The notes below the pieces were generated by a model. That model saw only the letters and a program-made list of their open reading frames with translations, did no database searches and was not told the DNA's origin. Shown here one piece after another: positions 11,802 to 40,507 of a stretch of DNA of 47,276 bases. A program made the position numbers and the translations under genes. The stretch comes from a virus. Lineage: Duplodnaviria; Caudoviricetes. Positions within the stretch are counted from its first letter, which is position 1. Each line of letters starts with the position of its first letter. The stretch is from positions 1 to 47,276 of IMG/VR virus record IMGVR_UViG_3300046779_000790; one strand, written 5' to 3'.

Positions 11802-12394
11802 GTGAAGTGATTACAATTAATACCGAAGATGCATCGAAAGTTGCATCACCAACAATAAAAACATTTGATTTGGTTTCTGCTGATTGGCCTGTTTTATATA
11901 AAGAACTACCTGAATTTGATTTCAGTAAACCACCAGTAAATCCAAATGAATTCGCATCTGCATTAGTAGAAACTTGTAAGAAGCACAATGGCTTTGGTTT
12001 GTCTGCCAATCAATGTGGTTATCCATATCGTGTATTTGTTATGGGCACTGGTGATGAATATGTGGCATTCTTCAATCCAAAGTTAATTAAGACTGAGGGT
12101 GAAGTACACATGGAAGAAGGATGTTTATCCTGGCCATTGTTAACGCTACGCATTACCAGACCTAAAAAGATTTGGGTAGAATACCAAGATTTCACAGGTG
12201 AGAAAAAAGAGGCAATCTTTGAAGGTATATCTGCACGTTGTTTCCTCCATGAATTGGATCACATGAATGGTATAATGTATACCAGTAGGGTTAAACCACT
12301 TGCGTTGCAGTTTGGTCTTAAGAAACTGGAAAAGATTAGACGCAAGTATTTCAATCCTAAAATTTTGAAACAGATGCAAGCGAAAAATATTTAA
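11798..12394 (+). CDS. def: Peptide deformylase
   Basis: GLSANQCG, EGCLS, HELDH motifs. Confidence 0.93.
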   Translation: MSEVITINTEDASKVASPTIKTFDLVSADWPVLYKELPEFDFSKPPVNPNEFASALVETCKKHNGFGLSANQCGYPYRVFVMGTGDEYVAFFNPKLIKTEGEVHMEEGCLSWPLLTLRITRPKKIWVEYQDFTGEKKEAIFEGISARCFLHELDHMNGIMYTSRVKPLALQFGLKKLEKIRRKYFNPKILKQMQAKNI

Positions 12395-13659
12395 TGGCAA
12401 CACCTACTGATTATGTCGATAAACAATGGAATGAATGGCAACAGGCCAATCCAGTTGAATCGTTTGAACACATTGATACTGACGTATTGAAAGAAACTTT
12501 AATACAGGATTTATCCTATGCATCCCAAATGGATGTGCGTGAGTATACTTTATATCAGAAATGGTGTGAAGTGCATGAGAGATATCCTGTACATGAAGTT
12601 TCTACAGTTTTTGGTGCAGAAATGCAAATGGTTAATCCAGAACAAAAGATTTTGATTGACCAAGTAAAATCTAATTTTTGGATGCCAGAATCACCAGACG
12701 ATTATGAAAAACTGAAACCAGTTATGCAAATTCATAATGGTGATTTGGCTGAAACTTGGAATGCAATTCGTACATTCTCATCTACAATGAAGAACAACAG
12801 TAACATTGGTCGTAACTTATTCTACACTGTTGTTGATGAACATTCAGGAAAGTATCTTGGTGTCATTTGTATTTCATCTGACTTCTTAGACCTTACACCA
12901 AGAGATAATGCGATTGGTTGGCCACGTGATGTTAAGACACAACAAGGCATGATTAACCACACAGCAATCGGTTCTACAATTGTTCCACTACAACCACTTG
13001 GTTTCAATTACATGGGTGGTAAATTATTGGCACTATTGTGTCTTGCTGACACAGTTCAAAAAGATTGGAAAGAACGATATGGTGATGTTCTTGTTGGTGT
13101 TACAACTACTTCCCTTTATGGCAATACTAAGTCCAATGGTCTATCTCAGTATGATGGTCTTGAACATTGGAACAAAATGGGTTTCTCTAGTGGTTCGGTT
13201 GCTTTTGAACCTTCTAAGAAAACAATGAAGATGGTATTCAATTGGATTAAAGAAAACTATCCACGTAAATATTTTGAATGGTGGGATGCCAAGAATACAC
13301 AAGGTCTTCCACTTAAGCGTGACCACAAGAATCGTTCTTTAAATTTTGCCTATTCTAAACTTGGCATTCCTAAGAACTTGATTCGTACAGAGCACCAGAG
13401 AGGCATCTATTTCTCACCTCTGTATAACAACACCAATGAATATCTCCGCAAGGAGATTGGTGATGAACAACTGGTAAAATCGTTTGATACCAGTGAAGAA
13501 ACCTTGGCACAAATTTGGAAAACCAAATATGCCAAAGGTCGTATATCAATGTTGAAGAAAAAGAATAATGTATCTTATGAATCGTTATTCTATGATGACT
13601 TGATATACCTGTCTTGGGAAGATACCAAGGCAAAGTATTTGCCACAAGTTGGCAGATAA
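12394..13659 (+). CDS. DUF4338 / DruA-like protein
   Basis: IVPLQPLGFNYMGGKLLALLC and TTSLYG...SQYDG motifs shared with 39401-40507. Confidence 0.65.
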   Translation: MATPTDYVDKQWNEWQQANPVESFEHIDTDVLKETLIQDLSYASQMDVREYTLYQKWCEVHERYPVHEVSTVFGAEMQMVNPEQKILIDQVKSNFWMPESPDDYEKLKPVMQIHNGDLAETWNAIRTFSSTMKNNSNIGRNLFYTVVDEHSGKYLGVICISSDFLDLTPRDNAIGWPRDVKTQQGMINHTAIGSTIVPLQPLGFNYMGGKLLALLCLADTVQKDWKERYGDVLVGVTTTSLYGNTKSNGLSQYDGLEHWNKMGFSSGSVAFEPSKKTMKMVFNWIKENYPRKYFEWWDAKNTQGLPLKRDHKNRSLNFAYSKLGIPKNLIRTEHQRGIYFSPLYNNTNEYLRKEIGDEQLVKSFDTSEETLAQIWKTKYAKGRISMLKKKNNVSYESLFYDDLIYLSWEDTKAKYLPQVGR

Positions 13660-20199: not shown

Positions 20200-20239
20200 A
20201 AAGAGGTTGCTTGACAACCTCTTTTTTTAAGTGTATAAT
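20200..20239 (+). promoter_or_regulatory. Terminator hairpin overlapping a sigma70 promoter
   Basis: AAGAGGTTG/CAACCTCTT plus T run; TTGACA(20211)-17nt-TATAAT(20234). Confidence 0.75.
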
Positions 20240-20428: not shown

Positions 20429-20503
20429 GGGCCTATAGCTTAATGGTAAAGCAGTGAACTCATAATTCATTGAGTCTAGGTTCAATTCCTAGTGGGCCCA
20501 CCA
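20429..20503 (+). tRNA. tRNA-CAT (Ile2/lysidine-type or Met)
   Basis: Cloverleaf, loop CTCATAA, encoded CCA; acceptor resembles bacterial Ile2. Confidence 0.88.
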
Positions 20504-21578: not shown

Positions 21579-22088
21579 ATGAATTTAAAAGTAGTTAATT
21601 GTCCTGATAAAGATTTAAAACCTTATGTGGAAAGAGCAGCATCTTTCTTTGCCAAAGAACTCATACCTAATACACGTATTCGCAATAACTGCCATACACT
21701 GATTGTGTTCAATGAAAACATTGTAGAATATGGATGTGCAGAGATTAAAGGATATAATACACAAAACAAAGCCAGAGATTTTCTAATAGAGATTCATCCT
21801 GGTATTGGTGTCAGAAACATATTTGAGACACTGGCGCATGAAATGGTTCACGTGAAACAATACGTTGAAGGTGAATTGAATGATACGATGACCACCTGGC
21901 GTGGTAAAAAAGTCAATGCTGACAATATAGAATACTGGTCACAACCATGGGAAATTGAAGCATTGGGTAAAGAAGCTGGTCTATTGACCAAGTTTGCAGT
22001 ACAAGAAACTTTGTGGGAAATCTTTGAAGGATTTAGAAATCCTGGTGCACCAATTGAGATGGCACCCATTCAATGGAAAATAAATTAA
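21579..22088 (+). CDS. HExxH zinc metallopeptidase-like protein
   Basis: TLAHEMVHVKQY and PWEIEA motifs. Confidence 0.7.
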   Translation: MNLKVVNCPDKDLKPYVERAASFFAKELIPNTRIRNNCHTLIVFNENIVEYGCAEIKGYNTQNKARDFLIEIHPGIGVRNIFETLAHEMVHVKQYVEGELNDTMTTWRGKKVNADNIEYWSQPWEIEALGKEAGLLTKFAVQETLWEIFEGFRNPGAPIEMAPIQWKIN

Positions 22089-22108: not shown

Positions 22109-22137
22109 TTGCCAAGGCTAAAAGTTTACTATATAAT
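22109..22137 (+). promoter_or_regulatory. Sigma70-type promoter for leader and tRNA array
   Basis: TTGCCA-17nt-TATAAT. Confidence 0.8.
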
Positions 22138-22172
22138 AGAGTCAATTAAAAAATTTTTGGAAGTTAATTAAA

Positions 22173-22274
22173 ATGTTATCGCATATATCCTTTAAATCAC
22201 AGCAAGAGTATCGCTCAATTAGTACACCTAATTGCGCCGATTTGCCATGGCTCGTGCATAGGGGATTTGTATAA
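22173..22274 (+). CDS. Putative attenuator leader peptide (33 aa, all 20 amino acids)
   Basis: MLSHISFKSQQEYRSISTPNCADLPWLVHRGFV; 30 distinct codons of 33; lies between promoter and terminator. Confidence 0.65.
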   Translation: MLSHISFKSQQEYRSISTPNCADLPWLVHRGFV

Positions 22275-22298
22275 CGTAATAGTAAAATACTACAAACA

Positions 22299-22338
22299 CA
22301 AAACCTCTAGGCCTAAAAATCTAGAGGTTTTTTGTTTT
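22299..22338 (+). terminator. Rho-independent terminator (candidate attenuator)
   Basis: AAAACCTCTAG/CTAGAGGTTTT plus T tract; 5' arm can alternatively pair with TAGGGGATTTGT (22259-22270). Confidence 0.85.
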
Positions 22339-22341
22339 GGT

Positions 22342-22424
22342 GTTGTCAATTTACAACAACCAACTTGACTAGAGGTCGCATCTGTTGTATACTCTAGTTT
22401 GTTCTTTAAAAATTTGTTGTAGTT
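22342..22424 (+). promoter_or_regulatory. tRNA-operon promoter module 1: palindrome, sigma70 promoter, boxA-like element
   Basis: GTTGT-N6-ACAAC, 7 nt, TTGACT-17-TATACT, TGTTCTTTAAAAATTTGTTGTAGTT. Confidence 0.75.
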
Positions 22425-22427
22425 TAT

Positions 22428-22501
22428 TGGGGTATAGCATAGTGGTAGTGCTGCGGACTTTGAATCCGTAGGTCCTTGTTCGATTCAAGGTACCCCAGCC
22501 A
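22428..22501 (+). tRNA. trnQ: tRNA-Gln(TTG)
   Basis: Cloverleaf, loop CTTTGAA, CCA. Confidence 0.93.
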
Positions 22502-22573
22502 TATAAAAGCACACTGCGGATGGGTAGCGAAGCCATCCTAAGAGTAGCTCTCAGCAGTGTGTTTCTATATGGT
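22498..22573 (+). ncRNA. Family-B structured element, copy 1
   Basis: CCATATAAAAGCACACTGC...GCAGTGTGTTTCTATATGG closing stem with two inner hairpins. Confidence 0.55.
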
Positions 22574-22577
22574 TAAT

Positions 22578-22669
22578 GGAAGATGATGCAGCGGGGATGG
22601 TCCTGCGACTGGCCTTGAAAACCAGGTTCTCAGAAATGGGATGGGGTTCGACTCCTCCGTCTTCCGCCA
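22578..22669 (+). tRNA. trnS: tRNA-Ser(TGA), non-canonical 8/4 fold
   Basis: 8-bp acceptor GGAAGATG/CGTCTTCC, 4-bp T stem, long variable arm, loop CTTGAAA, GCCA end. Confidence 0.8.
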
Positions 22670-22745
22670 AGTTGTGTTGCAACTAATCTGGGGTGCTTGC
22701 GTTCTCGCCCAGTTAAAATGCCAAATAATACGCAGCCAAATTTAT

Positions 22746-22837
22746 AGTGAGTTGGATGAGAGGTTTAAATCGGCACCCTGCTAAGGTGTTGTTCGTAGAA
22801 ATACGGGCCGTGGGTTCAAATCCCACACTCACTGCCA
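22746..22837 (+). tRNA. trnS: tRNA-Ser(GCT)
   Basis: Long variable arm, loop CTGCTAA, GCCA. Confidence 0.92.
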
Positions 22838-22844
22838 GTTTAAT

Positions 22845-22936
22845 GCCAGCGAGACTTGGAAGTCAGAGAGGTCTTATACACCTTTTAGCGCCAGATTAGC
22901 GTTCTTGAGAAGGTTCGATCCCTTCCGCTGGTACCA
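22845..22936 (+). tRNA. Atypical tRNA, anticodon TAT (Ile), long variable arm
   Basis: GCCAGCG/CGCTGGT-ACCA acceptor, loop CTTATAC, T arm GAAGG-TTCGATC-CCTTC. Confidence 0.75.
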
Positions 22937-22944
22937 AATGAAGG

Positions 22945-23190
22945 ATGAATATGTGGAATATTAAAATTGAAAATGGAATGATATTAAATGCAAGTCCAAC
23001 TTTGGACGATGCAATAAAGTTTGCAAAAGGTTACAACAAGTTTGTAACTATCACCGATGGCACTACAGAGATTGTAGGTAAGTTTGGTGTTGATGCAGTA
23101 GAAGAAAAAGTTTTACCAGATGGTGGAACATACGATTGGACCATGCGGCGTGATGAAACACACCGTAGTTCAAGGAAGAAATTAATGTAG
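22945..23190 (+). CDS. Hypothetical protein
   Basis: 81 aa ORF between tRNAs; TAG stop overlaps tRNA-Cys. Confidence 0.6.
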   Translation: MNMWNIKIENGMILNASPTLDDAIKFAKGYNKFVTITDGTTEIVGKFGVDAVEEKVLPDGGTYDWTMRRDETHRSSRKKLM

Positions 23191-23262
23191 GTGTGACCCG
23201 AAAGGCTAGGGAACGGATTGCAACCCCGTTTTATGCAGGTTCGATTCCTGTCACCTACTCCA
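23187..23262 (+). tRNA. trnC: tRNA-Cys(GCA)
   Basis: Loop TTGCAAC, U73 discriminator, CCA. Confidence 0.9.
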
Positions 23263-23278
23263 TAATACGAAAGTATTA

Positions 23279-23383
23279 GTTGTTGAAATACAACACACTG
23301 GTTGACAGAGATTCATGGTTGTGTTATACTTCATCTATGAATTGAGAAATCAATCAAATGTTCTTTAAAAATTTGTTGTAGTT
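23279..23383 (+). promoter_or_regulatory. tRNA-operon promoter module 2: palindrome, sigma70 promoter, boxA-like element
   Basis: GTTGT-N6-ACAAC, 7 nt, TTGACA-17-TATACT, same 25-nt boxA-like sequence at 23359-23383. Confidence 0.75.
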
Positions 23384-23386
23384 AAT

Positions 23387-23461
23387 GCACCTATCGTCTA
23401 TCGGTTAGGACGCTGCCCTTTCAAGGCGGAAAGAGGAGTTCGATTCTCCTTAGGTGTACCA
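23387..23461 (+). tRNA. trnE: tRNA-Glu(TTC)
   Basis: Loop CTTTCAA, CCA. Confidence 0.93.
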
Positions 23462-23586
23462 TTTGTTTTGCTGATGTAAGCCACAGCAGAAACGTTCAAT
23501 GTTGAGTAACTATGTATATAAACGGTCAGTTCTAGCTAGCAATCCCGTTGAGCATAGCAAATAGTGCGTCAGCAAAACAAATGGTA
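23457..23586 (+). ncRNA. Long irregular hairpin RNA, function unknown
   Basis: TACCATTTGTTTTGCTGATGTA pairs with TGCGTCAGCAAAACAAATGGTA; inner stems CTATG/CATAG and AACGG/CCGTT. Confidence 0.5.
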
Positions 23587-23592
23587 AATTAT

Positions 23593-23667
23593 GGGGGTAT
23601 AACTTAACGGCTAAAGTATCTGGCTTTTAACCAGGAAATCAGAGTTCGATTCTCTGTGCCCCTACCA
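23593..23667 (+). tRNA. trnK: tRNA-Lys(TTT)
   Basis: Loop CTTTTAA, CCA. Confidence 0.92.
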
Positions 23668-23675
23668 AGAAATTT

Positions 23676-23761
23676 GGAGATGTAGGAAAATTGGTAACCC
23701 CAGTGGACTGTAAATCCGCCGCCCCTGTGCATTGTGTGTTCAAGTCACACCGTCTCCACCA
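23676..23761 (+). tRNA. trnY: tRNA-Tyr(GTA)
   Basis: Loop CTGTAAA, long variable arm, CCA. Confidence 0.9.
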
Positions 23762-23767
23762 AATTTT

Positions 23768-23842
23768 GGTCCTGTCATATAGTGGCTATTATACCGGCCT
23801 GTCTAGTCGGATATCGGGGTTCGATTCCCCGCAGGATCGCCA
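23768..23842 (+). tRNA. trnD: tRNA-Asp(GTC)
   Basis: Loop CTGTCTA, G73, CCA. Confidence 0.9.
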
Positions 23843-23926
23843 GAGCAAATAACAATAATGTCCTAGGCATCTTTGTTCAACGGTTGTTAGTGACGATGGG
23901 TGATATCGGAACTTTCAAGATTTTAT

Positions 23927-24001
23927 TCCCCAGTAGCTCAGCGGTAGAGTAGCGGACTGTTAATCCGTTTGTCGTTGGTTCGATCCCAGCCTGGGGAGCC
24001 A
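23927..24001 (+). tRNA. trnN: tRNA-Asn(GTT)
   Basis: Loop CTGTTAA, GCCA. Confidence 0.94.
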
Positions 24002-24006
24002 GTTTT

Positions 24007-24065
24007 AGGATTCTTTCAGCAAATTAAAAATCTTTTTGGAATAAAGAAAAAAGCGAATCCTGTTG
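24007..24065 (+). ncRNA. Family-A RNA copy 1 (GGA anticodon-like hairpin)
   Basis: AGGATTC..CAGCAA...GAATCCT-GTTG frame; TCTTT-TTGGAAT-AAAGA inside. Confidence 0.7.
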
Positions 24066-24071
24066 TATTTT

Positions 24072-24145
24072 CTCGGTGTAGTGAAATGGTATCACCCGTG
24101 CTTTGGGAGCATGTAGCGCAAGTTCGATTCTTGCCACCGAGACCA
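24072..24145 (+). tRNA. trnP: tRNA-Pro(TGG)
   Basis: Loop TTTGGGA, CCA. Confidence 0.92.
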
Positions 24146-24202
24146 GTAATACTCGCCTTTATTGACGGCGTAGAGAAGGATAAATTGTCAATAACAAATT
24201 TC

Positions 24203-24277
24203 GGGCTGATGGTATAATTGGGAACACAGTGGCCTTGCAAGTCACAGTTGGGGGTTCGATTCCCCCTCGGTCCACCA
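24203..24277 (+). tRNA. trnA: tRNA-Ala(TGC)
   Basis: Loop CTTGCAA, G3:U70, CCA. Confidence 0.93.
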
Positions 24278-24363
24278 TATAAAAACACACTCTACCCTAC
24301 CCTGGCTGGAACGGCTGTGCGGGGATAGGAGAACAGACCCGTTTGAGTGTGTTTCTATATGGT
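24274..24363 (+). ncRNA. Family-B structured element, copy 2
   Basis: ACCATATAAAAACACACTC...GAGTGTGTTTCTATATGGT. Confidence 0.55.
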
Positions 24364-24435
24364 TCAGTAGCATAGTGGCAGTGCAGCATCTTCATACGGT
24401 GCCTTGTGTGAGTTCGATTCTCACCTGAACCACCA
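24361..24435 (+). tRNA. trnM: tRNA-Met(CAT), elongator-like
   Basis: Loop TTCATAC, CCA. Confidence 0.87.
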
Positions 24436-24441
24436 GATTAT

Positions 24442-24517
24442 GGGTCTTTAGCTCAGTGAACAGAGCTCTTGGCTACGAACCAAGAGGTCGGGGGTTTGAA
24501 TCCCTCAAGACCCTCCA
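24442..24517 (+). tRNA. trnR: tRNA-Arg(ACG)
   Basis: Loop CTACGAA, CCA. Confidence 0.92.
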
Positions 24518-24523
24518 TGATTT

Positions 24524-24597
24524 TCCCGGATAGTTAAATGGCATAACAATCGGCTGATAACCGGTCATCGCAAGTTCGATTCTTGCTCTGGGAACCA
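24524..24597 (+). tRNA. trnI: tRNA-Ile(GAT)
   Basis: Loop CTGATAA, CCA. Confidence 0.92.
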
Positions 24598-24602
24598 TTT
24601 TT

Positions 24603-24665
24603 AGGATAGTAACAGCAATAAAATACTTCAAACTTGTAACTTGAAAAGTAAAATCTATCCTGTTG
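24603..24665 (+). ncRNA. Family-A RNA copy 2 (Thr TGT anticodon-like hairpin)
   Basis: AGGATAG..CAGCAA...CTATCCT-GTTG; TTCAAA-CTTGTAA-CTTGAA inside. Confidence 0.72.
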
Positions 24666-24670
24666 TTTAT

Positions 24671-24744
24671 GTCTCGCAAGTGTTCCGGTAGCATAAGACT
24701 CTCCAAAAGTCCAGGACGGGGTTCGATTCCCTGGCGAGGCGCCA
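24671..24744 (+). tRNA. trnW: tRNA-Trp(CCA)
   Basis: Loop CTCCAAA, G73, CCA. Confidence 0.9.
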
Positions 24745-24768
24745 TATTTTTTTAAAAAGGTGATTGAT

Positions 24769-25257
24769 ATGAAAAATTTCAACGTAGATGAAGTCAAGCA
24801 ATTCCTTGCAACACAAGGACCTGATACCAAAGTTTATCTTGGTGCTGACTCTGAAAGAGTAAGAGTGAATGGTGTTTGGTATGCTGACTATGCTCTTGCA
24901 GTTGTAGTTCATATTGATGGCCGTCACGGTTGTAAGATTTTCGGTTTTGTAGACCGTGAAATTGATTATGACCACAAGAAAAGTAAACCTGCTATGCGTC
25001 TGATGACAGAAGTATATAAGGTTTCAGAATTGTTCCACAATCTACAAGAAGTTCTGGAAGATTTTCATGTTGAAGTTCATTTGGACTTGAACAAGAGTGA
25101 TGAATTCGGTTCTTCATGTGTTGTGCAACAAGCGATTGGTTACATCAAAGGTACATGTAATGTGACACCAATGGTTAAACCAGATGCACCTGCTGCAAGT
25201 TTCTGTGCTGATAGATTGAAAAGAATCTTAGCAGAACAAGAAATGGCAGGAGTCTAA
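24769..25257 (+). CDS. RNase H-like protein (YkuK/DUF458 family)
   Basis: YLGADSE, RLMTEV, EVHLDLN, VKPDAPAASFCAD motifs. Confidence 0.8.
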   Translation: MKNFNVDEVKQFLATQGPDTKVYLGADSERVRVNGVWYADYALAVVVHIDGRHGCKIFGFVDREIDYDHKKSKPAMRLMTEVYKVSELFHNLQEVLEDFHVEVHLDLNKSDEFGSSCVVQQAIGYIKGTCNVTPMVKPDAPAASFCADRLKRILAEQEMAGV

Positions 25258-25305
25258 CAGACCCCCGTGAATAAACACGGATGAAAATTCCAAAGTTTAC
25301 TTTGG

Positions 25306-25380
25306 GGAGATATTAGTTTAGTGGCAAAACCACGGGTTGTGATTCCGTTATCACCAGTTCAATTCTGGTATATCTCCCCA
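25306..25380 (+). tRNA. trnH: tRNA-His(GTG) with G-1
   Basis: Loop TTGTGAT, G-1:C73, CCA; flanked by inverted repeat 25292-25390. Confidence 0.9.
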
Positions 25381-25393
25381 AAGTAAATTTTAT

Positions 25394-25468
25394 GCCTTGT
25401 TAACTCAGCGGTAGAGTAGCGCTTTTACACAGCGAAGGTCGGCAGTTCGATCCTGTCACAAGGTACCA
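25394..25468 (+). tRNA. trnV: tRNA-Val(TAC)
   Basis: Loop TTTACAC, CCA. Confidence 0.92.
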
Positions 25469-25470
25469 TT

Positions 25471-25648
25471 TTTGTAAGTGTAGATGTTGAGAAAGTGTAC
25501 CTAGGCATAGGAACATGAGCTTTAAGCGGGCAATGGAGCAGCGCAGAAGCAAGTATCAACTATTACTACGTACCTCTATACAGTCGGCCGCATCAAAGAA
25601 AATACTGTTAAAATGGTGGGAAATAAGCGAGGTCTCACTACTTACAAA
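25471..25648 (+). ncRNA. Candidate ~180-nt structured RNA
   Basis: Terminal stem TTTGTAAGT/ACTTACAAA enclosing a non-tRNA region between tRNAs. Confidence 0.4.
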
Positions 25649-25674
25649 TTCACATTTGACATATATAGTTATAT

Positions 25675-25749
25675 GCTTCTATGGCAGAGTGGTTATGCGA
25701 CCGATTCTAAACCGGTTTGAGGTGAGTTCAAATCTCACTAGGAGCACCA
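25675..25749 (+). tRNA. Amber-suppressor tRNA (anticodon CTA)
   Basis: GCTTCTA/TAGGAGC-ACCA; ACCGA-TTCTAAA-CCGGT; T arm GTGAG-TTCAAAT-CTCAC. Confidence 0.82.
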
Positions 25750-25861
25750 ATTTTATTTTGAAAAGGAGATTGACATGGAGAAGTTGTCAGCATAGATTCG
25801 TCCACCATAAGTTTTCTTGTACTTTAAAACAAAACACATTTTAAATAAACAGGAGAATTAT

Positions 25862-26239
25862 ATGAGTATCGAATTAAAAATCAAATCAAAGCATCTGGCC
25901 CTTGAGCCACAAATCATTCGTAAAGAGGAAGCAAAACTCAAGAAGCGAATGAAACATCATCGCAGTGATGATAAAGTAAGTTCAATTTCTTTGGAATGGA
26001 AACTACACAGTTTAACCAACCATCGAAAAATAAATGTTCGTAACGAAGCAAGAGCAACACACTTAGCACGTGCCTATCTTGCAAACAAACCATACAACTA
26101 TTGCGAAATAAAACGCAAGGACGATTATTACTTTCGGTATTATATCGTACCTAGAGTTCTTGCAATGGTAACCAAGTATGGCACAGGCGAACAAAGAAAA
26201 GCAACAAGAGAGACTATTGAAGAATGGTCTAAGCAATAA
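25862..26239 (+). CDS. Basic hypothetical protein; start revised to 25862
   Basis: AGGAG RBS; MSIELKIKSKHLALEPQIIRKEE...RNEARATHLARAYL. Confidence 0.75.
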   Translation: MSIELKIKSKHLALEPQIIRKEEAKLKKRMKHHRSDDKVSSISLEWKLHSLTNHRKINVRNEARATHLARAYLANKPYNYCEIKRKDDYYFRYYIVPRVLAMVTKYGTGEQRKATRETIEEWSKQ

Positions 26240-26315
26240 GCCGATATAGCTCAGGTGGTAGAGCAGTAGACTGAAAATCTATGTGTCAGCGGTTCGACTC
26301 CGTTTATCGGCACCA
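26240..26315 (+). tRNA. trnF: tRNA-Phe(GAA)
   Basis: Loop CTGAAAA, CCA. Confidence 0.94.
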
Positions 26316-26320
26316 GTTTT

Positions 26321-26388
26321 AGGATAGTAACAGCAAACAATTTATACATTTGACTTTTAATCAAAACCGTAAAAATGCTATCCTGTTG
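26321..26388 (+). ncRNA. Family-A RNA copy 3 (Lys TTT anticodon-like hairpin)
   Basis: AGGATAG..CAGCAA...CTATCCT-GTTG; TTTGA-CTTTTAA-TCAAA inside. Confidence 0.75.
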
Positions 26389-26393
26389 TATAT

Positions 26394-26470
26394 ACCCAAG
26401 TGACGGAATTGGTATACGTACTTGTCTCAAAAGCAAGGTGATGTGGGCTCGTATCCCACCTTGGGTACCA
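26394..26470 (+). tRNA. trnL: tRNA-Leu(CAA), short variable arm
   Basis: Loop CTCAAAA, CCA; atypical T loop CTCGTAT. Confidence 0.85.
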
Positions 26471-26473
26471 TAT

Positions 26474-26548
26474 GGGTTGTAAGCTTAAGTGATGAAGCAA
26501 CCGGCTCTTAACCGGAAGAACAGAGTTTGATTCTCTGACGACCCACCA
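26474..26548 (+). tRNA. trnK: tRNA-Lys(CTT)
   Basis: Loop CTCTTAA, CCA. Confidence 0.88.
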
Positions 26549-26553
26549 ATCAA

Positions 26554-26627
26554 GCTCTTATAGGTAAATGGCATACCACATCCATGGTAAGGATGTATCC
26601 TAAGTTCGATTCTTAGTAGGAGCACCA
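26554..26627 (+). tRNA. trnT: tRNA-Thr(GGT)
   Basis: Loop ATGGTAA, CCA. Confidence 0.88.
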
Positions 26628-26824
26628 ACTTGTTTTAATGTTGTTAAGACAAACTCTTTTTCAGGTTGAATATATAATTCATCATCTTTAAAAGATTTTT
26701 TCTCAGTGACATATGATGAAACAAATTCAGAATCTATACAGTAGTAAGCATGAGGCACATATTTTTGGTGTGCAAATAATTCATAGAATATTTCTACTGT
26801 AGGTTTTTGTGAATGAGGTGTCAT
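26600..26824 (-). CDS. Small antisense hypothetical protein inside tRNA array
   Basis: MTPHSQKPTVEIFYELF...; fills an AT-rich gap; late-promoter-like AATAAATA just upstream on minus strand. Confidence 0.45.
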   Translation of the reverse strand: MTPHSQKPTVEIFYELFAHQKYVPHAYYCIDSEFVSSYVTEKKSFKDDELYIQPEKEFVLTTLKQVGAPTKNRT

Positions 26825-26837
26825 TAAAGTATTTATT

Positions 26838-26914
26838 GCCCCGGTGACGGAATTGGTATACGTGTTGGTCTTAGAAGCCAAATTTTAGGAGTTCGACTCT
26901 CCTCTGGGGCACCA
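26838..26914 (+). tRNA. trnL: tRNA-Leu(TAG), short variable arm
   Basis: Loop CTTAGAA, CCA. Confidence 0.9.
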
Positions 26915-26920
26915 AGTTTT

Positions 26921-26997
26921 GCGGTTGTGACGGAATTGGCATACGTATCGGACTTAAAATCCGAGTTTTGAGGGTTCGACTCCCTCCTTCCGCACCA
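26921..26997 (+). tRNA. trnL: tRNA-Leu(TAA), short variable arm
   Basis: Loop CTTAAAA, CCA; mismatches in acceptor stem. Confidence 0.85.
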
Positions 26998-27001
26998 GAT
27001 T

Positions 27002-27076
27002 CTGGCGTTAGTATAATGGATAATACAATGGTCTTCTACACCACTAATAGGGGTTCGATTCCTCTACGCCGGACCA
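27002..27076 (+). tRNA. trnR: tRNA-Arg(TCT)
   Basis: Loop CTTCTAC, CCA. Confidence 0.87.
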
Positions 27077-27094
27077 TTTAATAAGGAGTTTATT

Positions 27095-27658
27095 ATGCCA
27101 TCAGTATTTCTTGTGAGTGACACACACTTCGGTCATGCTGGTGTGTGTAGATTCACCGACTCTATGACAGGTGAAAAGATTAGGCCATGGACTGATCCTG
27201 ATGAGATGGATGAGGAAATGGTAAAACGATGGAACGAAACAGTAGGACCAAAAGATAAAGTATATCATCTTGGCGATGTTGTAATCAACCGTAAAGCACT
27301 TAGCATTATGCATAGACTTAACGGTGATAAAGTTCTTATTCGTGGTAACCACGATATTTTTCGTGATGATGAATATAGAGTACACTTCCGTGAGCTTCGT
27401 GCATATCATGTGATGAACGGAATGATTCTTTCACATATTCCAATTCATACTGATAGTATCGGCCGATTTGGTACCAACATTCACGGACACCTTCATACAG
27501 GTCGTGTTAGAGTTGATGATAAAATTGATCCGAGATATCATTGCGTATGTGTTGAACAAACAGATTTTCGTCCTATCCTTTTTGAAGATGTGATGAAAAG
27601 AATTAAAGCTGAAGGTGGTGAAGTTGGTTTCCGTAACGGAAACGGACCGACCATGTGA
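27095..27658 (+). CDS. Calcineurin-like metallophosphoesterase
   Basis: SDTHFGH, HLGD, GNHD, HGHLH. Confidence 0.92.
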   Translation: MPSVFLVSDTHFGHAGVCRFTDSMTGEKIRPWTDPDEMDEEMVKRWNETVGPKDKVYHLGDVVINRKALSIMHRLNGDKVLIRGNHDIFRDDEYRVHFRELRAYHVMNGMILSHIPIHTDSIGRFGTNIHGHLHTGRVRVDDKIDPRYHCVCVEQTDFRPILFEDVMKRIKAEGGEVGFRNGNGPTM

Positions 27659-27661
27659 CGC

Positions 27662-27690
27662 TTGCCAAGAATTGTTTTTTACTATATAAT
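27662..27690 (+). promoter_or_regulatory. Sigma70-type promoter
   Basis: TTGCCA-17nt-TATAAT. Confidence 0.75.
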
Positions 27691-27700
27691 AAACACTTCT

Positions 27701-27775
27701 GCGGGATTGGTGCTAGTGGTAACACGGGACCTTGCCAAGGTTCAGTTGCGAGTTCGATCCTCGCATCCCGCTCCA
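27701..27775 (+). tRNA. trnG: tRNA-Gly(GCC)
   Basis: Loop TTGCCAA, U73, CCA. Confidence 0.93.
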
Positions 27776-27779
27776 ATTC

Positions 27780-27853
27780 GCCCTACTAGTACAATGGTAG
27801 TACACTGGTTTTGTAATCCTGTGATGGCAGTTCGATTCTGTCGTGGGGCACCA
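27780..27853 (+). tRNA. trnT: tRNA-Thr(TGT)
   Basis: Loop TTTGTAA, CCA. Confidence 0.88.
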
Positions 27854-27861
27854 ACACTTTT

Positions 27862-27910
27862 GGTATATTTGAATATACCGCTTGACTACAACAAATTTTT
27901 GTGTTAGAAT
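27862..27910 (+). promoter_or_regulatory. Promoter for family-A RNAs and TROVE-like gene, with upstream palindrome
   Basis: GGTATA-N6-TATACC then TTGACT-17nt-TAGAAT. Confidence 0.7.
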
Positions 27911-27939
27911 ACACAGTATTGAAAGATTGAAAAGGTTTT

Positions 27940-28095
27940 AGGTAAGGTACAGCAACATCAAATATAACTGATGGCTGCCCCCATGTTGGTGTACACTGGA
28001 GTTTAATTACTTTGAAGGTGTACATTGAAAACGTAGGCAGCGAGGTGAGTTTCGATATTCTCACTGTAAACAAAAAGTAGAAAACTTACCTGTTG
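27940..28095 (+). ncRNA. Family-A RNA copy 4 (large multi-hairpin insert)
   Basis: AGGTAAG..CAGCAA...CTTACCT-GTTG; inner stems CATCA/TGATG, GCTGCC/GGCAGC, TGTACAC/GTGTACA, GTGAG/CTCAC. Confidence 0.7.
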
Positions 28096-28100
28096 TTTTT

Positions 28101-28220
28101 AGGATACTCACAGCAAATAATTTTTCCGACTATAACGGAGAGGTTACTGGTTCGACTCCAGTTTTACGCTTCGGCGTGAATAGCTCAATTGGACAGAGCG
28201 CTAAAAAATGTATCCTGTTG
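28101..28220 (+). ncRNA. Family-A RNA copy 5 containing a circularly permuted tRNA (Y RNA/YrlA-like)
   Basis: AGGATAC..CAGCAA...GTATCCT-GTTG; inside: anticodon-like arm, T arm, acceptor stem closed by TTCG, D arm. Confidence 0.8.
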
Positions 28221-28242
28221 TTTGAAAGAAAGAGAGAAAATT

Positions 28243-29670
28243 ATGAACACTTTTGTAGACGCCGTTGTTAATCAAGATGCCCGTACCGCAAACGGTATGA
28301 AGGCTCGTAAGTCCACTGCTAATGCAGTTGTAGATTTGTTCTACAACATTGGTGCATCCCGTGGCAAAAACATTGTGCCAGCTTTCACTGCTGCCTTTGT
28401 TGAAAACAAAGACTTGGCATTGCGTGTTGCCGCATGGGCTCGTGATGTTCGTGGTGGTGCTGGTGAACGTGAAACCTTCCGTAACATTTTGCGTCACTTA
28501 GAAGATACCGATGTTAAGTCGGCTGCTCTCTTAATGGCAAAAGTTCCAGAGTTAGGTCGCTGGGATGACTTGTTAGTATTCAAAAATGCTTTCTTAAAGC
28601 AAATGGCTTTTGAATACATTCATCACGCTCTAGAAGCTGGTGATGGCCTTTGTGCAAAATGGATGCCTCGTCAAGGACAAATTGCTGCTGAATTGCGTAA
28701 TTACCTTGGTTGGTCTCCAAAGTTTTACCGTAAGCGTTTGGTTGAATTGACCAACGTGGTTGAAACTCAAATGTGTGCAAAGCAATGGGATGAAATTAAT
28801 TTCTCTCATGTACCTTCTGTAGCGGCATCCCGTTACAAGAAGGCTTTTAACCGTAACACTCCAACTTATGCAGCATATGTTGCTTCGTTGGTTAAGGGTG
28901 ATAACCCTGAAGTTAAGGTTAATGCAGGTGCTGTGTTCCCATACGATGTGCTGAAAGGCCGTATCGGTGGTTACATGAAATTCGACAAGACCGAATTGAA
29001 CTTGGTGCAAAAACAATGGGAGGCTTTGCCTAACTTTGTTGGCGATGCAAACATTCTACCTTTGGTGGATGTTTCAGGTTCGATGACCTGCCCAGCAGGT
29101 GGTTATGGTTCCAAATCAGGTCTAACCTGTATGGAAGTAGCAGTCTCTTTGGGACTATACTTGGCAGATAAGAATGAAGGCAAGTTCAAGGACACCTTCC
29201 TAACTTTCTCTGACAAACCAGAATTGTTGCACTTGAAAGGTAACATTAACCAAAAGATTGACCAAATGGTTAAATCTGATTGGGGTATGTCTACTAACCT
29301 ACACAAGGCATTTGAAAGAATCCTTGATGTAGCAGTAAAAGGTGGCGTGCCACAAGAAGAAATGCCAGCGATGGTATTGATTCTGTCAGACATGCAATTT
29401 AACGCTTGCGTTAGACATGATGACTCTGCCATGCAGATGATTGCACGTAAGTACAAAGAAGCGGGATACACTTTGCCAAAGGTTGTATTCTGGAACTTGA
29501 ATGCCACATACGGCAACGCTCCAGTAAAGTTCGATACTTCTGGTACTGCATTGGTATCTGGTTTCTCACCAGCAGTCGTAAAACCACTGTTGGCGGGTGA
29601 CTTAGAAACCTTTACACCAGAATCTGTGATGCTTAAAACCATCATGGATGACCGTTACAAAGTATTGTGA
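28243..29670 (+). CDS. TROVE-like helical domain plus C-terminal vWA protein (DUF2828-type, Ro60/Rsr-related); start revised to 28243
   Basis: RDVRGGAGERETFR, GRWDDL, AKWMPR; vWA MIDAS DVSGSM, STN, ILSDMQF, VFWNL. Confidence 0.8.
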   Translation: MNTFVDAVVNQDARTANGMKARKSTANAVVDLFYNIGASRGKNIVPAFTAAFVENKDLALRVAAWARDVRGGAGERETFRNILRHLEDTDVKSAALLMAKVPELGRWDDLLVFKNAFLKQMAFEYIHHALEAGDGLCAKWMPRQGQIAAELRNYLGWSPKFYRKRLVELTNVVETQMCAKQWDEINFSHVPSVAASRYKKAFNRNTPTYAAYVASLVKGDNPEVKVNAGAVFPYDVLKGRIGGYMKFDKTELNLVQKQWEALPNFVGDANILPLVDVSGSMTCPAGGYGSKSGLTCMEVAVSLGLYLADKNEGKFKDTFLTFSDKPELLHLKGNINQKIDQMVKSDWGMSTNLHKAFERILDVAVKGGVPQEEMPAMVLILSDMQFNACVRHDDSAMQMIARKYKEAGYTLPKVVFWNLNATYGNAPVKFDTSGTALVSGFSPAVVKPLLAGDLETFTPESVMLKTIMDDRYKVL

Positions 29671-29674
29671 TGGT

Positions 29675-29701
29675 ATGAGGACTTGAAAAAGTCCTCATTT
29701 T
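29675..29701 (+). terminator. Terminator hairpin after TROVE-like gene
   Basis: ATGAGGACT/AGTCCTCAT followed by TTT. Confidence 0.7.
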
Positions 29702-29773
29702 GAAACATACTATTACCGTGGCAGGCGAAAGTCCTACGCCAAAAGTTAAAACTAGATAGTGTGTTTCAAAATG
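29696..29773 (+). ncRNA. Family-B-like structured element, copy 3
   Basis: CATTTTGAAACATACTAT...ATAGTGTGTTTCAAAATG; shares AGTGTGTTTC with copies 1 and 2. Confidence 0.5.
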
Positions 29774-29791
29774 ATGTATATATAGATATAT

Positions 29792-29865
29792 GCGGGATTA
29801 GTTTAATGGCAAAACTAGAGATTTCCAATCTTTCGTCATCAGTTCGATTCTGATATCCCGCTCCA
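29792..29865 (+). tRNA. trnG: tRNA-Gly(TCC)
   Basis: Loop TTTCCAA, U73, CCA. Confidence 0.92.
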
Positions 29866-29871
29866 TTTAAT

Positions 29872-29938
29872 GCGGTTTGTAATAGTACGACATGAGGCAC
29901 CCCCTTATGTTAGCTGAGCAAAGCAGAAGACCGCTCCA
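29872..29938 (+). ncRNA. 67-nt mini tRNA-like element with Gly-type acceptor
   Basis: GCGGTTT/AGACCGC-TCCA, reduced D and T hairpins, long anticodon-like stem. Confidence 0.55.
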
Positions 29939-29951
29939 CTTTGAGGTTATT

Positions 29952-30197
29952 ATGAATATTAAACCATTGGGAAATAAAATTGTTATTAGCCGTATTGAAG
30001 GCACAAAACAAACAGCATCTGGAATTATCCTCAGAACAACAGAAGAACCAGACCGTGCAGAAGTTCTCGCAATTGGTCCTGATGTTAATGAAGTAAGTGT
30101 AGGTGATGTTGTTCTATTGAATTGGAATGCTGCAATCAAAACTGGTGATTACTATGTTATCACCATTGACCATGTAGTATTCATTTACGGAGAATAA
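29952..30197 (+). CDS. groES: Co-chaperonin GroES (gp31-like); start revised to 29952
   Basis: IKPLGNKIVI...TASGIIL...VLAIGPDV..VSVGDVV. Confidence 0.9.
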   Translation: MNIKPLGNKIVISRIEGTKQTASGIILRTTEEPDRAEVLAIGPDVNEVSVGDVVLLNWNAAIKTGDYYVITIDHVVFIYGE

Positions 30198-30198
30198 A

Positions 30199-30465
30199 AT
30201 GTCTGATGGTGGCAAAGGTTCTAGTCCAAGACCGTTTAGTGTTTCACAAGAAACATTTGGTAATAACTACGACAATATTTTTAGAAAACCGTCACCAAAA
30301 GAAATAGAAGATGATAAAGCTGAACAAGAAGAATTTGATAGAATTTTAAAACAAAATCTAGAATATCAAAGACGACAAAAAGCTTTAGACGAATTAGTAA
30401 GAATCAATGAAGAATTAGGATTGTATGTTAATGATAATACACCTAATCCTTTAATAAAGAAATGA
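30199..30465 (+). CDS. Hypothetical protein
   Basis: MSDGGKGSSPRPFSV...NYDNIF; 88 aa. Confidence 0.7.
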   Translation: MSDGGKGSSPRPFSVSQETFGNNYDNIFRKPSPKEIEDDKAEQEEFDRILKQNLEYQRRQKALDELVRINEELGLYVNDNTPNPLIKK

Positions 30466-30538
30466 TGCGGATTGGTGAAATAGTATCACAGTGGGCTCAT
30501 AATCCTCAGTTCCGGTGCAACTCCGTGGTCCGCAACCA
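30466..30538 (+). tRNA. trnM: tRNA-Met(CAT), initiator-like
   Basis: GGG-CTCATAA anticodon arm, CCA; atypical T arm. Confidence 0.78.
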
Positions 30539-38056: not shown

Positions 38057-39404
38057 AGAATACTTACGTAAGGTACTCCCTTTCATCAAAGAGGACTACT
38101 TTACAGATAGGACCGATAGAGCAATCTTCACTGAGATTTCCAAATTCACGGACTCTTACAACTCTACACCAACGATTGAAGCACTTGAACTGGCCGTCAA
38201 AGAAAGGCGAAATCTCACAGATGAAGAAGTGGAGAAGTGTGAAACTAATTTGCAAGAGATTGCTAAAACTAGAGAAGAACTCTCCAAGATTGAATGGTTG
38301 GTTGATAAGACCGAAAAATTCTGTCAAGAGAAGGCCATATACAATGCTGTATTGGGGTCTATTTCCATCCTCGATGGTAAAGACAAAACCCAAGATAAAG
38401 GGTCCATACCTAAACTACTTTCCGATGCACTAGCAATTTCTTTTGATAGTTCGGTTGGTCATGATTACTTGGAAAACTCCGATGAACGTTATGACTTCTA
38501 CCACAAGAAAGAAGAAAGAATTCCATTTGACCTTGAATTATTCAATAAGATAACCAAAGGCGGTTTACCTAAGAAAACATTGAACATTGCTTTGGCAGGA
38601 ACTGGTGTTGGTAAATCTTTGTTCATGTGTCATGTTGCCGCAGGCGCAATGGTACAAGGTAAGAATGTATTGTACATCACTATGGAAATGGCAGAAGAAA
38701 AGATTGCTGAGCGTATTGATGCCAACTTGCTGAATGTTACAGTTGATGATTTGTTGAATCTTCCTAAGGAGATGTATGACAAGAAGATTGAAAAACTCCG
38801 TGAAAAAACAGTTGGTAAATTAATCATCAAAGAATATCCAACTGCATCGGCTTCTGCAACACACTTTAGAACACTATTGAATGAATTGAATTTGAAAAAG
38901 TCTTTTGTACCTGACCTTATCTTTATTGACTATTTGAACATCTGTTGTTCCTCTCGTATCAAGGCTGGTGCGAATATCAATTCTTACACTTATGTTAAAT
39001 CTATTGCTGAAGAACTTCGTGGTCTGGCAGTAGAGTATAATGTACCAATTGTGAGTGCAACACAAACAACTCGTAGTGGTTTCAACAGTAGTGATCCTGG
39101 TTTGGAAGATACATCAGAATCTTTTGGTTTGCCTGCAACTGCTGACTTTATGTTTGCGTTGATTTCTTCAGAAGAACTTGAAGAACTTGGCCAGATTATG
39201 GTCAAACAGTTGAAGAATCGTTATGCCGATCCAACAACATACAAACGTTTTAGTGTTGGTGTTGACCGTTCTAAGATGAGATTATATGATGTGGAGCAAT
39301 CTGCACAAAATGATATTACAGATTCCGGTAATGATAAACCATTGAATACATTTGGTGACCGTGAAAGACCACAGAAGAAACAATTTACTGGATTTAAAGT
39401 ATGA
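38013..39404 (+). CDS. gp41: Replicative DnaB-like helicase
   Basis: AGTGVGKS, IDYLNI, SATQTTRSG, KQLKNRY. Confidence 0.97.
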   Translation: MRLEQTILKNLIYNEEYLRKVLPFIKEDYFTDRTDRAIFTEISKFTDSYNSTPTIEALELAVKERRNLTDEEVEKCETNLQEIAKTREELSKIEWLVDKTEKFCQEKAIYNAVLGSISILDGKDKTQDKGSIPKLLSDALAISFDSSVGHDYLENSDERYDFYHKKEERIPFDLELFNKITKGGLPKKTLNIALAGTGVGKSLFMCHVAAGAMVQGKNVLYITMEMAEEKIAERIDANLLNVTVDDLLNLPKEMYDKKIEKLREKTVGKLIIKEYPTASASATHFRTLLNELNLKKSFVPDLIFIDYLNICCSSRIKAGANINSYTYVKSIAEELRGLAVEYNVPIVSATQTTRSGFNSSDPGLEDTSESFGLPATADFMFALISSEELEELGQIMVKQLKNRYADPTTYKRFSVGVDRSKMRLYDVEQSAQNDITDSGNDKPLNTFGDRERPQKKQFTGFKV

Positions 39405-40507
39405 AGTTAGAATTTAATGATGCTGTTCATTGTGCCAAAGTATTTGAAGATTACTTTGGTAATTTTGACCGTATTGATGAATATATGCGTGACCAGAAGT
39501 TGAACTCTTTGGCTGAGTTGCCATCGAATCCTTTGTTTCCAATTGAAGATGAGTTGTTTCAAGATTTCAAAATGCATCCAAAAGATATGGATTTTGAAGT
39601 TGTTGAGATTGATACTGAAACATGGACTAATCTATTGAACATCACTTCATCACATGTGAATATTCCGCCCGTTGGTCGTAATGTCAAAGTGGCAGTACGT
39701 GAGAAGAACACAGGAAAGTACGTAGGTTTCATTCGTCTTGGTTCACCTGTAATCAACTGTAAACCTCGTAATGAATTGCTTGGACAAGTGTTTACACAAA
39801 AACCTGAGTGGGGTAAACGATTCAACAACTCTGCAATGATGGGTTTTGTTATCGTACCTGCACAACCATTTGGTTATAATTATCTTGGTGGTAAACTTCT
39901 GGCTGCAATCTGTACGTCACATGAAGTACGTGAGATTGTGAATAAGAAGTATGGTATGAATTTGTGTTTGTTTGAGACTACCTCTTTGTATGGTAGTTCT
40001 AAGACTGTATCTCAATATGATGGTATGAAACCATATATCAGATACAAAGGTTTAACTGAGAGTGATTTCTTGCCTATGATGCACGGTAAACCATATTCTG
40101 ACCTACGTGATTTCGTCCAAGATAAAGTCGGACCTTTGGTTGAGGATGATGCTTCTAGCAAGAAACTAAAAATCTCTATGAAGATTATTTCACTCACCAA
40201 AGCAGCACTTAAAGGTACACCTGAGGGGGATACATTCTCAGCAACGATTGAGAAGGCAAAAGGGTTGACAGAACAAAAAAGATATTATATTAGTGACTAT
40301 GGTTTCAAAAACATGGTTGACTATGTAAACTGTAAGACGGACGTGCTTATTCCTGGTGAAAACTATGAAAAACATAATTTGGTAAACTTGATTGAGTGGT
40401 GGAGAAACAAAGCCGTCAATCGGTATGCAACACTTCATAATGAAGGTCGTTTAAGAAATGAACTTGAGGTCTGGACTTCTGGAAAGGATATCCAAATCAT
40501 TAGATAA
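39401..40507 (+). CDS. DUF4338 / DruA-like protein, paralog 2
   Basis: IVPAQPFGYNYLGGKLLAAIC, ETTSLYG...SQYDG. Confidence 0.65.
   Translation: MKLEFNDAVHCAKVFEDYFGNFDRIDEYMRDQKLNSLAELPSNPLFPIEDELFQDFKMHPKDMDFEVVEIDTETWTNLLNITSSHVNIPPVGRNVKVAVREKNTGKYVGFIRLGSPVINCKPRNELLGQVFTQKPEWGKRFNNSAMMGFVIVPAQPFGYNYLGGKLLAAICTSHEVREIVNKKYGMNLCLFETTSLYGSSKTVSQYDGMKPYIRYKGLTESDFLPMMHGKPYSDLRDFVQDKVGPLVEDDASSKKLKISMKIISLTKAALKGTPEGDTFSATIEKAKGLTEQKRYYISDYGFKNMVDYVNCKTDVLIPGENYEKHNLVNLIEWWRNKAVNRYATLHNEGRLRNELEVWTSGKDIQIIR

Follow-up and report, generated by a model that had tools for sequence, protein, structure and literature searches.

The window (the whole stretch of 47,276 nucleotides that was analysed) comes from a T4-like phage, as judged by the Pfam matches of its portal, gp23, UvsW, RegA and family-B polymerase genes, and its closest cultured capsid relatives share only ~65% identity with it. 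ARAGORN detected 29 tRNA genes, 28 of which lie within positions 22428-30538, with all 20 amino acids covered. Including a Ser-TGA and a Lys-CTT gene, the array comprises 30 genes (Table 1) and starts with a Gln-TTG tRNA. A tRNA with the anticodon CTA (25675-25749), present also in the relative L113 and in phage DLP6, is a candidate suppressor or a candidate for TAG recoding; TAG stops were found in 0 of the 44 long ORFs of the window, and its leader ORF (see below) is free of in-frame TAG. A 92-nt tRNA with the anticodon TAT and a long variable arm (22845-22936), whose identity is uncertain, recurs in many relatives and in DLP6. The array also holds five related elements (24003-24066, 24599-24667, 26317-26388, 27936-28097 and 28097-28222) with a closing stem in common and a variable insert, three of the inserts resembling bare anticodon stem-loops (GGA, TGT, TTT). 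The element at 28097-28222 has tRNA-like arms in permuted order and a sub-threshold score for the YrlA Y RNA (E 2e-4), and is located directly upstream of a DUF2828/DUF7788 gene. Possibly, the five elements form a family of Y-like RNAs with anticodon loops, which might act as decoys. A structured-looking stretch after the tRNA-Gly (29811-29888) is similar to a short, non-tRNA stretch that recurs after the anchor gene (the upstream 169-aa gene of Table 1) in a clade of relatives with small arrays (L064-L076). Two genes matching the Druantia DruA family were also observed in the window (12394-13659 and 39401-40507), an unusual number for one phage. Upstream of the cassette described here, a perfect sigma70 promoter overlaps a terminator-like hairpin (20200-20239), and a short ORF and then a lone tRNA-Met (20429-20503) come after it.

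Table 1. Features of the leader cassette and the tRNA array in the window, and of the KVP40/nt-1-type cassettes in two other loci.
Feature	Position	Strand	Basis or remarks
Upstream 169-aa gene	21579..22088	+	Synteny anchor only
P1 promoter, sigma70-type TTGCCA-17-TATAAT	22109..22137	+	11/12 consensus match
Weak Shine-Dalgarno-like GGAAG	22159..22163	+	9 nt before ATG; from sequence
Leader ORF, 33 codons + TAA	22173..22274	+	20 amino acids, 30 different codons
Intra-ORF hairpin under conserved EYR...D motif	22210..22241	+	-12 kcal/mol, z -2.0
Antiterminator 5' strand (final ORF codons)	22259..22270	+	Pairing, folding, covariation
Switch strand (alternative partners: antiterminator or terminator 3' arm)	22298..22311	+	Pairing, covariation
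Intrinsic terminator	22300..22338	+	Stem 22300-22331, 8-nt loop, U-tract
P2 promoter, downstream of terminator, bypasses switch	22365..22393	+	10/12 consensus match
Conserved motif after P2	22400..22411	+	Sequence; boxA-like label assumed
tRNA array (30 genes)	22428..30538	+	28 by ARAGORN, plus Ser-TGA and Lys-CTT (Rfam, by eye)
Ser-TGA tRNA	22578-22669	+	Rfam and by eye
Lys-CTT tRNA	26474-26548	+	Rfam and by eye
Internal promoters of tRNA array	23302, 27662, 27882	+	Promoter prediction
KVP40/nt-1-type leader and switch	L314 14205-14040	-	Cassette scan
KVP40/nt-1-type leader and switch	L317 439-600		Cassette scan

A previous sequence-only reading of this region had placed a promoter, a short ORF and a terminator before the array, and all its coordinates were correct when rechecked. 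The leader RNA is predicted to start near 22144, and the peptide encoded in it has no Pfam match. Folding of the terminator stem together with the U-tract gave -22 kcal/mol (z -5.1). The final codons of the ORF can pair, as that reading had claimed, with nucleotides 22298-22309 at 11 of 12 positions (one of them G:U), and a folding energy of -13.2 kcal/mol (z -2.5) was obtained for the resulting antiterminator hairpin. A promoter and a leader ORF lie upstream of the array, an intrinsic terminator is supported by prediction and covariation, and an antiterminator overlapping the 3' end of the ORF is predicted to exclude it, which are features of a leader-peptide attenuator. No cis-regulatory leader family of Rfam, T-box included, was found at the gathering score; the only matches were sub-threshold chance matches over the terminator. 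The conserved motif after P2, which we take to resemble the boxA of rRNA operons, is also found at ~23360, after the internal promoter at 23302, and its presence after two promoters hints at rRNA-type antitermination through the tRNA array. This motif was present with 55 of the 74 listed leaders of relatives (see below), having been part of the locus search pattern.

The codon content of the ORF was recounted, and the 20 amino acids and 30 different codons attributed to it, with only CAT, TTT and TCA repeated, were confirmed. The 20 amino acids include the start Met, internal Met being absent, and the sole Gly codon sits inside the antiterminator. Of the codons regarded as disfavoured in this genome, TCG, CGC, CTC and AGG are indeed rare (4-7% of their families), whereas ATA is only mildly so (15% of Ile); ATA is present in 18 of 26 representative leaders. 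Using the codon usage of the 44 window ORFs, the chance of finding 20 amino acids in 33 codons was 7e-4, that of at least 30 codons in 33 was 2e-4, and the joint chance was 3e-6. Among 10,529 windows taken from these 44 real ORFs, 15 contained 20 amino acids and none contained 30 codons, and in random stop-free DNA with 30-50% GC the joint chance was at most 1.5e-4. Since a single ORF chosen by eye might be a matter of luck, relatives were tested.

Related loci were found by means of the anchor gene or the pattern of terminator plus downstream motif, the leader sequence being left unused. The relatives are a sample, consisting of 201 loci among the matches listed plus the window, in which 91 distinct terminators lie no more than 330 nt before a tRNA. 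A fixed rule, which required an ORF whose end lay 22-48 nt upstream of the terminator stem, was satisfied at 79 of these 91 listed terminators. The 12 misses, which were left out of the leader count, include eight with a leader by inspection (L035, L038, L064, L065, L090, L103, L144 and L150), three without one, and L196, which was placed in neither group. After merging duplicates and dropping L148, which is the end of the anchor gene and has no antiterminator, and with the first-pass starts retained for L112 and L141, at least 74 distinct leader peptides were obtained among the loci listed, with identities to the window peptide down to 15%. Clustering of these peptides gave 26 groups at 70% identity and 6 at 50%; because leaders share ancestry, the 74 do not represent 74 independent events.

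Other searches were also carried out. An exact search for the terminator in viral contigs gave 0 matches, and the three matches of a looser search were rejected as unrelated terminators lacking tRNA, leader and antiterminator. When the leader region was compared with cultured phages by blastn, the tRNA was the only part that matched. A scan of bacterial and archaeal genomes with the leader motif gave at least 121 matches, which were chance-like; among the matches listed, two had a tRNA in the locus, two had a downstream T-run and none had the cassette. Public RNA runs contained at most 0.17 of the words, and in four public RNA contig sets that cover the tRNAs of relatives no listed piece spans the leader, both sources being uninformative on it. 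In Cr30, no tRNA was found near the anchor gene.

Among the 74 listed leaders, 51 contain 20 amino-acid types, 16 contain 19, four contain 18 and three contain 17. When only the last 30 codons were counted, which makes the result independent of the start assigned (n=70 listed leaders), the mean was 18.1 types, as compared with 14.3 for one of the other frames and 14.8 for the second, and 7,120 windows of 30 codons from long ORFs averaged 14.3 types, 23 of them reaching 19 and none 20. Nucleotide shuffling of each leader gave 16.3 types versus the 19.6 observed, and the other two frames of the leader DNA showed ordinary diversity and contained stops in 23 and 26, respectively, of 26 representatives. 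A column-shuffle test was performed with 23 aligned representatives of the main family, the small-array clade being excluded. These leaders average 19.57 types versus 17.77+-0.21 in column-shuffled chimeras, with none of 5,000 shuffles reaching the observed value, and 20 types were present in 61% of real leaders versus 39% of single-crossover chimeras. His is found in 22 of the 23 aligned leaders (1.09 copies) distributed over 10 columns, and Gln in all 23 (1.13 copies) over 7 columns. Both are thus near single-copy and yet shift between columns, which indicates that loss at one position is compensated elsewhere.

The same tendency was seen in decoding classes, with 720 in the 26 representatives versus 672+-8 expected from pooled leader usage, 660 from genome usage and 686 from uniform usage; in 10 divergent leaders 288 were counted versus 258 and 267 expected. 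The excess of raw codons over uniform usage was not significant in the 26 representatives (p 0.15). Amino acids repeated within a leader tend to fall in different decoding classes. The excess in decoding classes supports a pan-tRNA reading, beyond a merely pan-amino-acid one. As judged by these sequence comparisons, selection demonstrably acts on a complete repertoire of amino acids and decoding classes rather than on the peptide sequence, and it is likely that sampling of nearly every tRNA class is what the leader is built for. Leaders with conserved diversity and an unconserved peptide, as foreseen for relatives by the sequence-only reading, are therefore present, and their codon-class diversity exceeds three null models. 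The region preceding the antiterminator contains a mean of 18.7 types, or 17.0 with a margin of four codons (74 listed leaders), and internal Met is present in 31 of the 74. In the window copy Gly is predicted to be unsensed and Val marginal, elongator Met being absent; with the last 5-6 codons predicted to be blind, ~17-18 amino acids would be sensed by this copy.

Conservation of the switch was analysed in the same loci. The antiterminator duplex was significant against shuffles (p<=0.05) in 74 of 76 listed leaders, the exceptions being L098 and L148, and it ends within ~6 codons of the ORF stop. In a 27-row alignment made from sequence only, 11 of 14 antiterminator pairs showed changes on both sides, in agreement with the covariation expected from the pairing originally proposed, and 0 of 500 shuffles had a paired fraction as high. 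The covariation score was 0.196 in the true register and 0.170 and 0.201 with slides of +1 and +2; slid registers score alike since both strands consist of G- and T-runs and the alignment contains some misregistered rows. Compensatory changes were found in 3 of 7 terminator pairs, and in a register-anchored table, which is structure-fitted, the bases upstream of the stem track the antiterminator and not the 3' arm. An antiterminator of -11 kcal/mol or stronger was predicted at 88 of 93 listed terminators before tRNAs. The remaining five lie directly after the stop of the anchor gene and have no leader, the last 30 codons of the anchor gene containing 13-14 types in them; these five relatives have lost leader and antiterminator together. 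Among the other listed terminators, 4 of 13 have an antiterminator, and all four are leaders on contigs ending within 170 nt.

These data bear on whether the terminator simply ends upstream transcription, with P2 acting independently and the diversity of the ORF arising as a by-product of RNA structure or of a small RNA. The conservation of P2 in relatives, the five relatives that keep the same terminator with no leader, and the finding that short ORFs with at least 19 amino acids arise by chance 3-7 times per 14-30 kb region would all fit such an arrangement. We nevertheless regard it as very improbable, given the results with the other frames and with nucleotide shuffles described above, the dedicated promoter (at least 9 of 12 consensus positions) before 65 of the 74 listed leaders, the stop-to-stem distance of 26-47 nt across them, and the lack of the antiterminator in precisely the five leaderless relatives. 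The cassette is very likely, on the comparative evidence, a ribosome-dependent transcription attenuator. In trp and his leaders, a protector hairpin terminates untranslated RNA; a hairpin of this type (1:2) was significant in only 8 of the 74 listed leaders. Thus, from the trp/his-type attenuation proposed for this locus, the competition between an antiterminator at the ORF end and the terminator was retained, whereas the protector hairpin was unsupported and the tandem control codons are absent, with 30 different codons in 33.

Structure is also predicted inside the ORF, whose folding z-score was below -1 in 20 of the 27 representatives analysed, and the hairpin at 22210-22241 could possibly be an RNA-polymerase pause or synchronising hairpin. 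TnaC and SpeFL are nascent-peptide arrest switches, and the motif above this hairpin raises the question of whether the peptide, through EYR...D..W, senses one metabolite in a similar manner, or else is a small trans-acting protein. Among the 23 leaders of the main family, W and Y occur in all, E in 19 and R in 20, these two each in one column, in keeping with such a function. Completeness alone, however, requires W and Y once, the codons of the motif residues are fixed (TAT in 26 of 26 representatives, CGC in 20 of 26) and fall within a conserved RNA hairpin, and families down to 15% identity that lack the motif keep 19-20 amino acids and the switch. We regard a peptide with a function of its own as very improbable.

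The content of the leaders was compared with that of the arrays. At least ~6 kb of DNA was available downstream of 20 listed leaders, and in every one of these the array had 25-29 tRNA genes, representing 18-20 amino acids. By contrast, the small arrays of L064 (4 tRNAs), L065 (6) and L058 (7), all three of them fragments and the first two belonging to one clade, are preceded by leaders of 21-25 codons with 11-17 types (11 and 12 in L064 and L065). The leader codons that match amino acids of the array were 9 of 20 in L064 (p 0.009), 14 of 21 in L065 (p 0.0002) and 12 of 24 in L058 (p 0.026). No significant enrichment was found in the leaders of the mid-size arrays of L026, L029 and L038 (11-13 tRNAs), and in large arrays the amino acids absent from the leader and those absent from the array do not match one-to-one. 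A relation between the codons of the leader and the regulated product, as in known attenuators, is therefore seen in complete leaders before complete arrays and in the three small arrays.

The broad-sensing attenuator of the tRNA array that was first read from the window thus passed the comparative tests of diversity, decoding classes and covariation. We consider it probable that this conserved cassette before a complete array lets transcription pass on into the tRNA genes once decoding slows at almost any codon; since relatives keep the layout, the phage likely makes extra tRNA when ribosomes stall for almost any tRNA. According to the folding predictions, a ribosome keeping pace with transcription would cover 22259-22270 at the last codons and let the terminator form. 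A ribosome waiting at codons 2-28 would leave the antiterminator strand accessible for pairing with 22298-22309 ahead of the 3' arm, and transcription from P1 would run on into the tRNA genes. The trigger would be the loss of charged tRNA from any cause, such as host tRNA decay in infection, anticodon-nuclease defence or starvation, and a missing tRNA, by stalling ribosomes and raising tRNA supply, would close a negative-feedback loop.

Folding of the RNA downstream of a simulated ribosome was done for the 26 representatives. With the ribosome at codons 10-20, antitermination had a mean P of ~0.99, and it was predicted to persist until the ribosome was 2-3 codons before the antiterminator. With the ribosome at the stop no antitermination was predicted in any of the 26, a result that follows from the masking assumption and hence is not independent evidence. 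For untranslated RNA, antitermination was the predicted outcome in 23 of the 26, the window copy being an exception (P 0.01), so that failed initiation would also be read as ON. One question is whether a real attenuator at this site reads the overall speed or coupling of translation (antibiotics, ribosome damage, cold, infection stage) and not tRNA supply. The predicted read-through for any upstream stall and for untranslated RNA is in agreement with this, as are the responses of toiL and whiB7 to many antibiotics (PMC12121999) and the induction of the Anabaena trn operon by translation antibiotics (PMC10272220), in so far as the portions of these reports consulted describe them. General slowing, however, needs no single His, Cys, Gln and Trp kept at shifting positions, no excess of decoding classes and no shrinkage of the repertoire with small arrays. 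Sensing of speed instead of tRNA supply is thus improbable, and it is compatible with the tRNA-supply sensor preferred here, as both can hold.

Two caveats had been raised about the window copy, a weak ribosome-binding site and a second promoter. The site is weak indeed, and the concern is eased by the 34 of 74 listed relatives whose leader ORF appears to be leaderless, its start codon coinciding with the predicted start of transcription. P2 is present in the window and conserved downstream of the terminator in 64 of the 74; in 7 there is no room for it, the terminator being no more than 30 nt from the first tRNA. Conservation of P2 makes it likely that the switch boosts the array rather than being its sole gate. 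P2 and the internal promoters would provide a basal supply and read-through from P1 an on-demand boost.

The tRNA regions of five cultured phages (CZ01, DLP6, Acj61, RaK2 and V45v66) were scanned for the cassette, which was found only in Vibrio phage CZ01 (PV740454); no leader-plus-switch was present at the array head in the other four. The CZ01 leader has 37 codons and 19 amino acids and is unrelated in sequence to that of the window. It is followed by a predicted antiterminator starting from the stop codon, a terminator and 25 tRNAs, with one tRNA-Met further upstream. The cassette was kept in all eight KVP40-type phages examined (CZ01, KVP40, nt-1, phi-pp2, VH7D, VS1, D482 and F86), whose leaders have 37-38 codons and 18-19 types and differ by frame-preserving indels. 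Their switch regions hardly vary, and therefore covariation cannot be shown there. In the annotations of phi-pp2 and F86 the leader is listed as a hypothetical protein, and in KVP40 an opposite-strand ORF is annotated instead. In the KVP40/nt-1-type loci of Table 1, the cassette is followed by a conserved promoter-like stretch.

Phage tRNAs of T5 and SP15 replace host tRNAs cut by the defence nucleases retron-Eco7 and PrrC, and rescue from retron-Eco7 depends on expression level or a strong promoter (PMC11555353). Phage tRNAs have also been considered as counter-defence against PARIS (PMC11464382) and in an anticodon-loop hypothesis (PMC10264068). In the text of these reports that we covered, supply from strong promoters is described and neither sensing nor induction, whereas the cassette described here would sense. 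We tentatively suggest that in T4-like phages a minimal pangram leader, with at least two independent origins (the window lineage and the KVP40 type), may audit host tRNAs as an inducible counter-defence. An anticodon nuclease destroying any tRNA would stall the ribosome, and the replacement set of tRNAs would be switched on.

Why phages carry tRNA genes has long been asked, and the proposals include codon compensation, host tRNA decay and evasion of anticodon nucleases. If the array is indeed coupled to a sensor, this would show what the phage monitors, namely decoding failure at any codon, and would favour supply on demand over static codon matching. The question is testable with one reporter and with cultured phages (nt-1 on Vibrio natriegens). 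If this interpretation is true, attenuation extends to tRNA genes and to viruses, selection is shown to act on completeness of a repertoire and not on residues, a sequence signature becomes available for mining the same control elsewhere, and ~200 nt would serve as a general reporter for tRNA-targeting defence systems.

In the leaders of amino-acid operons (trpL, hisL, thrL, ilvL, pheM), a short ORF extends with its 3' end over an antiterminator, which cannot coexist with the terminator, and a stall at a hungry codon leads to read-through; the phage cassette is predicted to share these traits. Such leaders repeat the codons of one, two or three amino acids, and their targets are biosynthetic or synthetase genes. 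The phage leader differs from them in using each amino acid about once, in having a tRNA array as its target and in the lack of support for a protector. No attenuator acting on tRNA genes was found in searches of an open-access library or among the relevant terms in phage papers examined for them. The toiL leader of E. coli topAI-yjhQ resembles the phage cassette in that stalls at many positions of the uORF give one output; it differs in acting through translational attenuation and Rho-dependent termination, in lacking Ala, Ser and Thr codons, in sensing antibiotics and in having a toxin-antitoxin target, as far as the part of the report covered describes it (PMC12121999). The Anabaena trn operon, likewise, is a spare array of 26 tRNA genes turned on under translational stress, whereas it is controlled at initiation by the ribbon-helix-helix repressor TrcR, is located on a cellular megaplasmid and, in the sections of its report consulted, has no leader ORF (PMC10272220).

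Like the phage cassette, whiB7/wblC combines a uORF, an antiterminator and an intrinsic terminator. The uORF of whiB7 in M. smegmatis contains every amino acid except Cys, the starvations that induce it are determined by its composition, and its single Trp codon matters, a precedent for one codon being sufficient (10.1101/2023.06.02.543512, in the part consulted). whiB7 was the top induced transcript after tRNA cleavage by VapC5, which its authors link to stalling (PMC10287673, in the part consulted). According to the portions of these sources covered, whiB7/wblC controls a cellular transcription factor by means of a longer, Ala-enriched uORF, several amino acids being missing from it in M. 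tuberculosis. In the window, the downstream genes are tRNAs and the leader has one Ala in 33 codons, so the cassette would work in a similar way and is not a member of that family. Unlike whiB7, the phage leader is of near-minimal length, selected for completeness and diversity of decoding classes, viral, and directed at tRNA genes.
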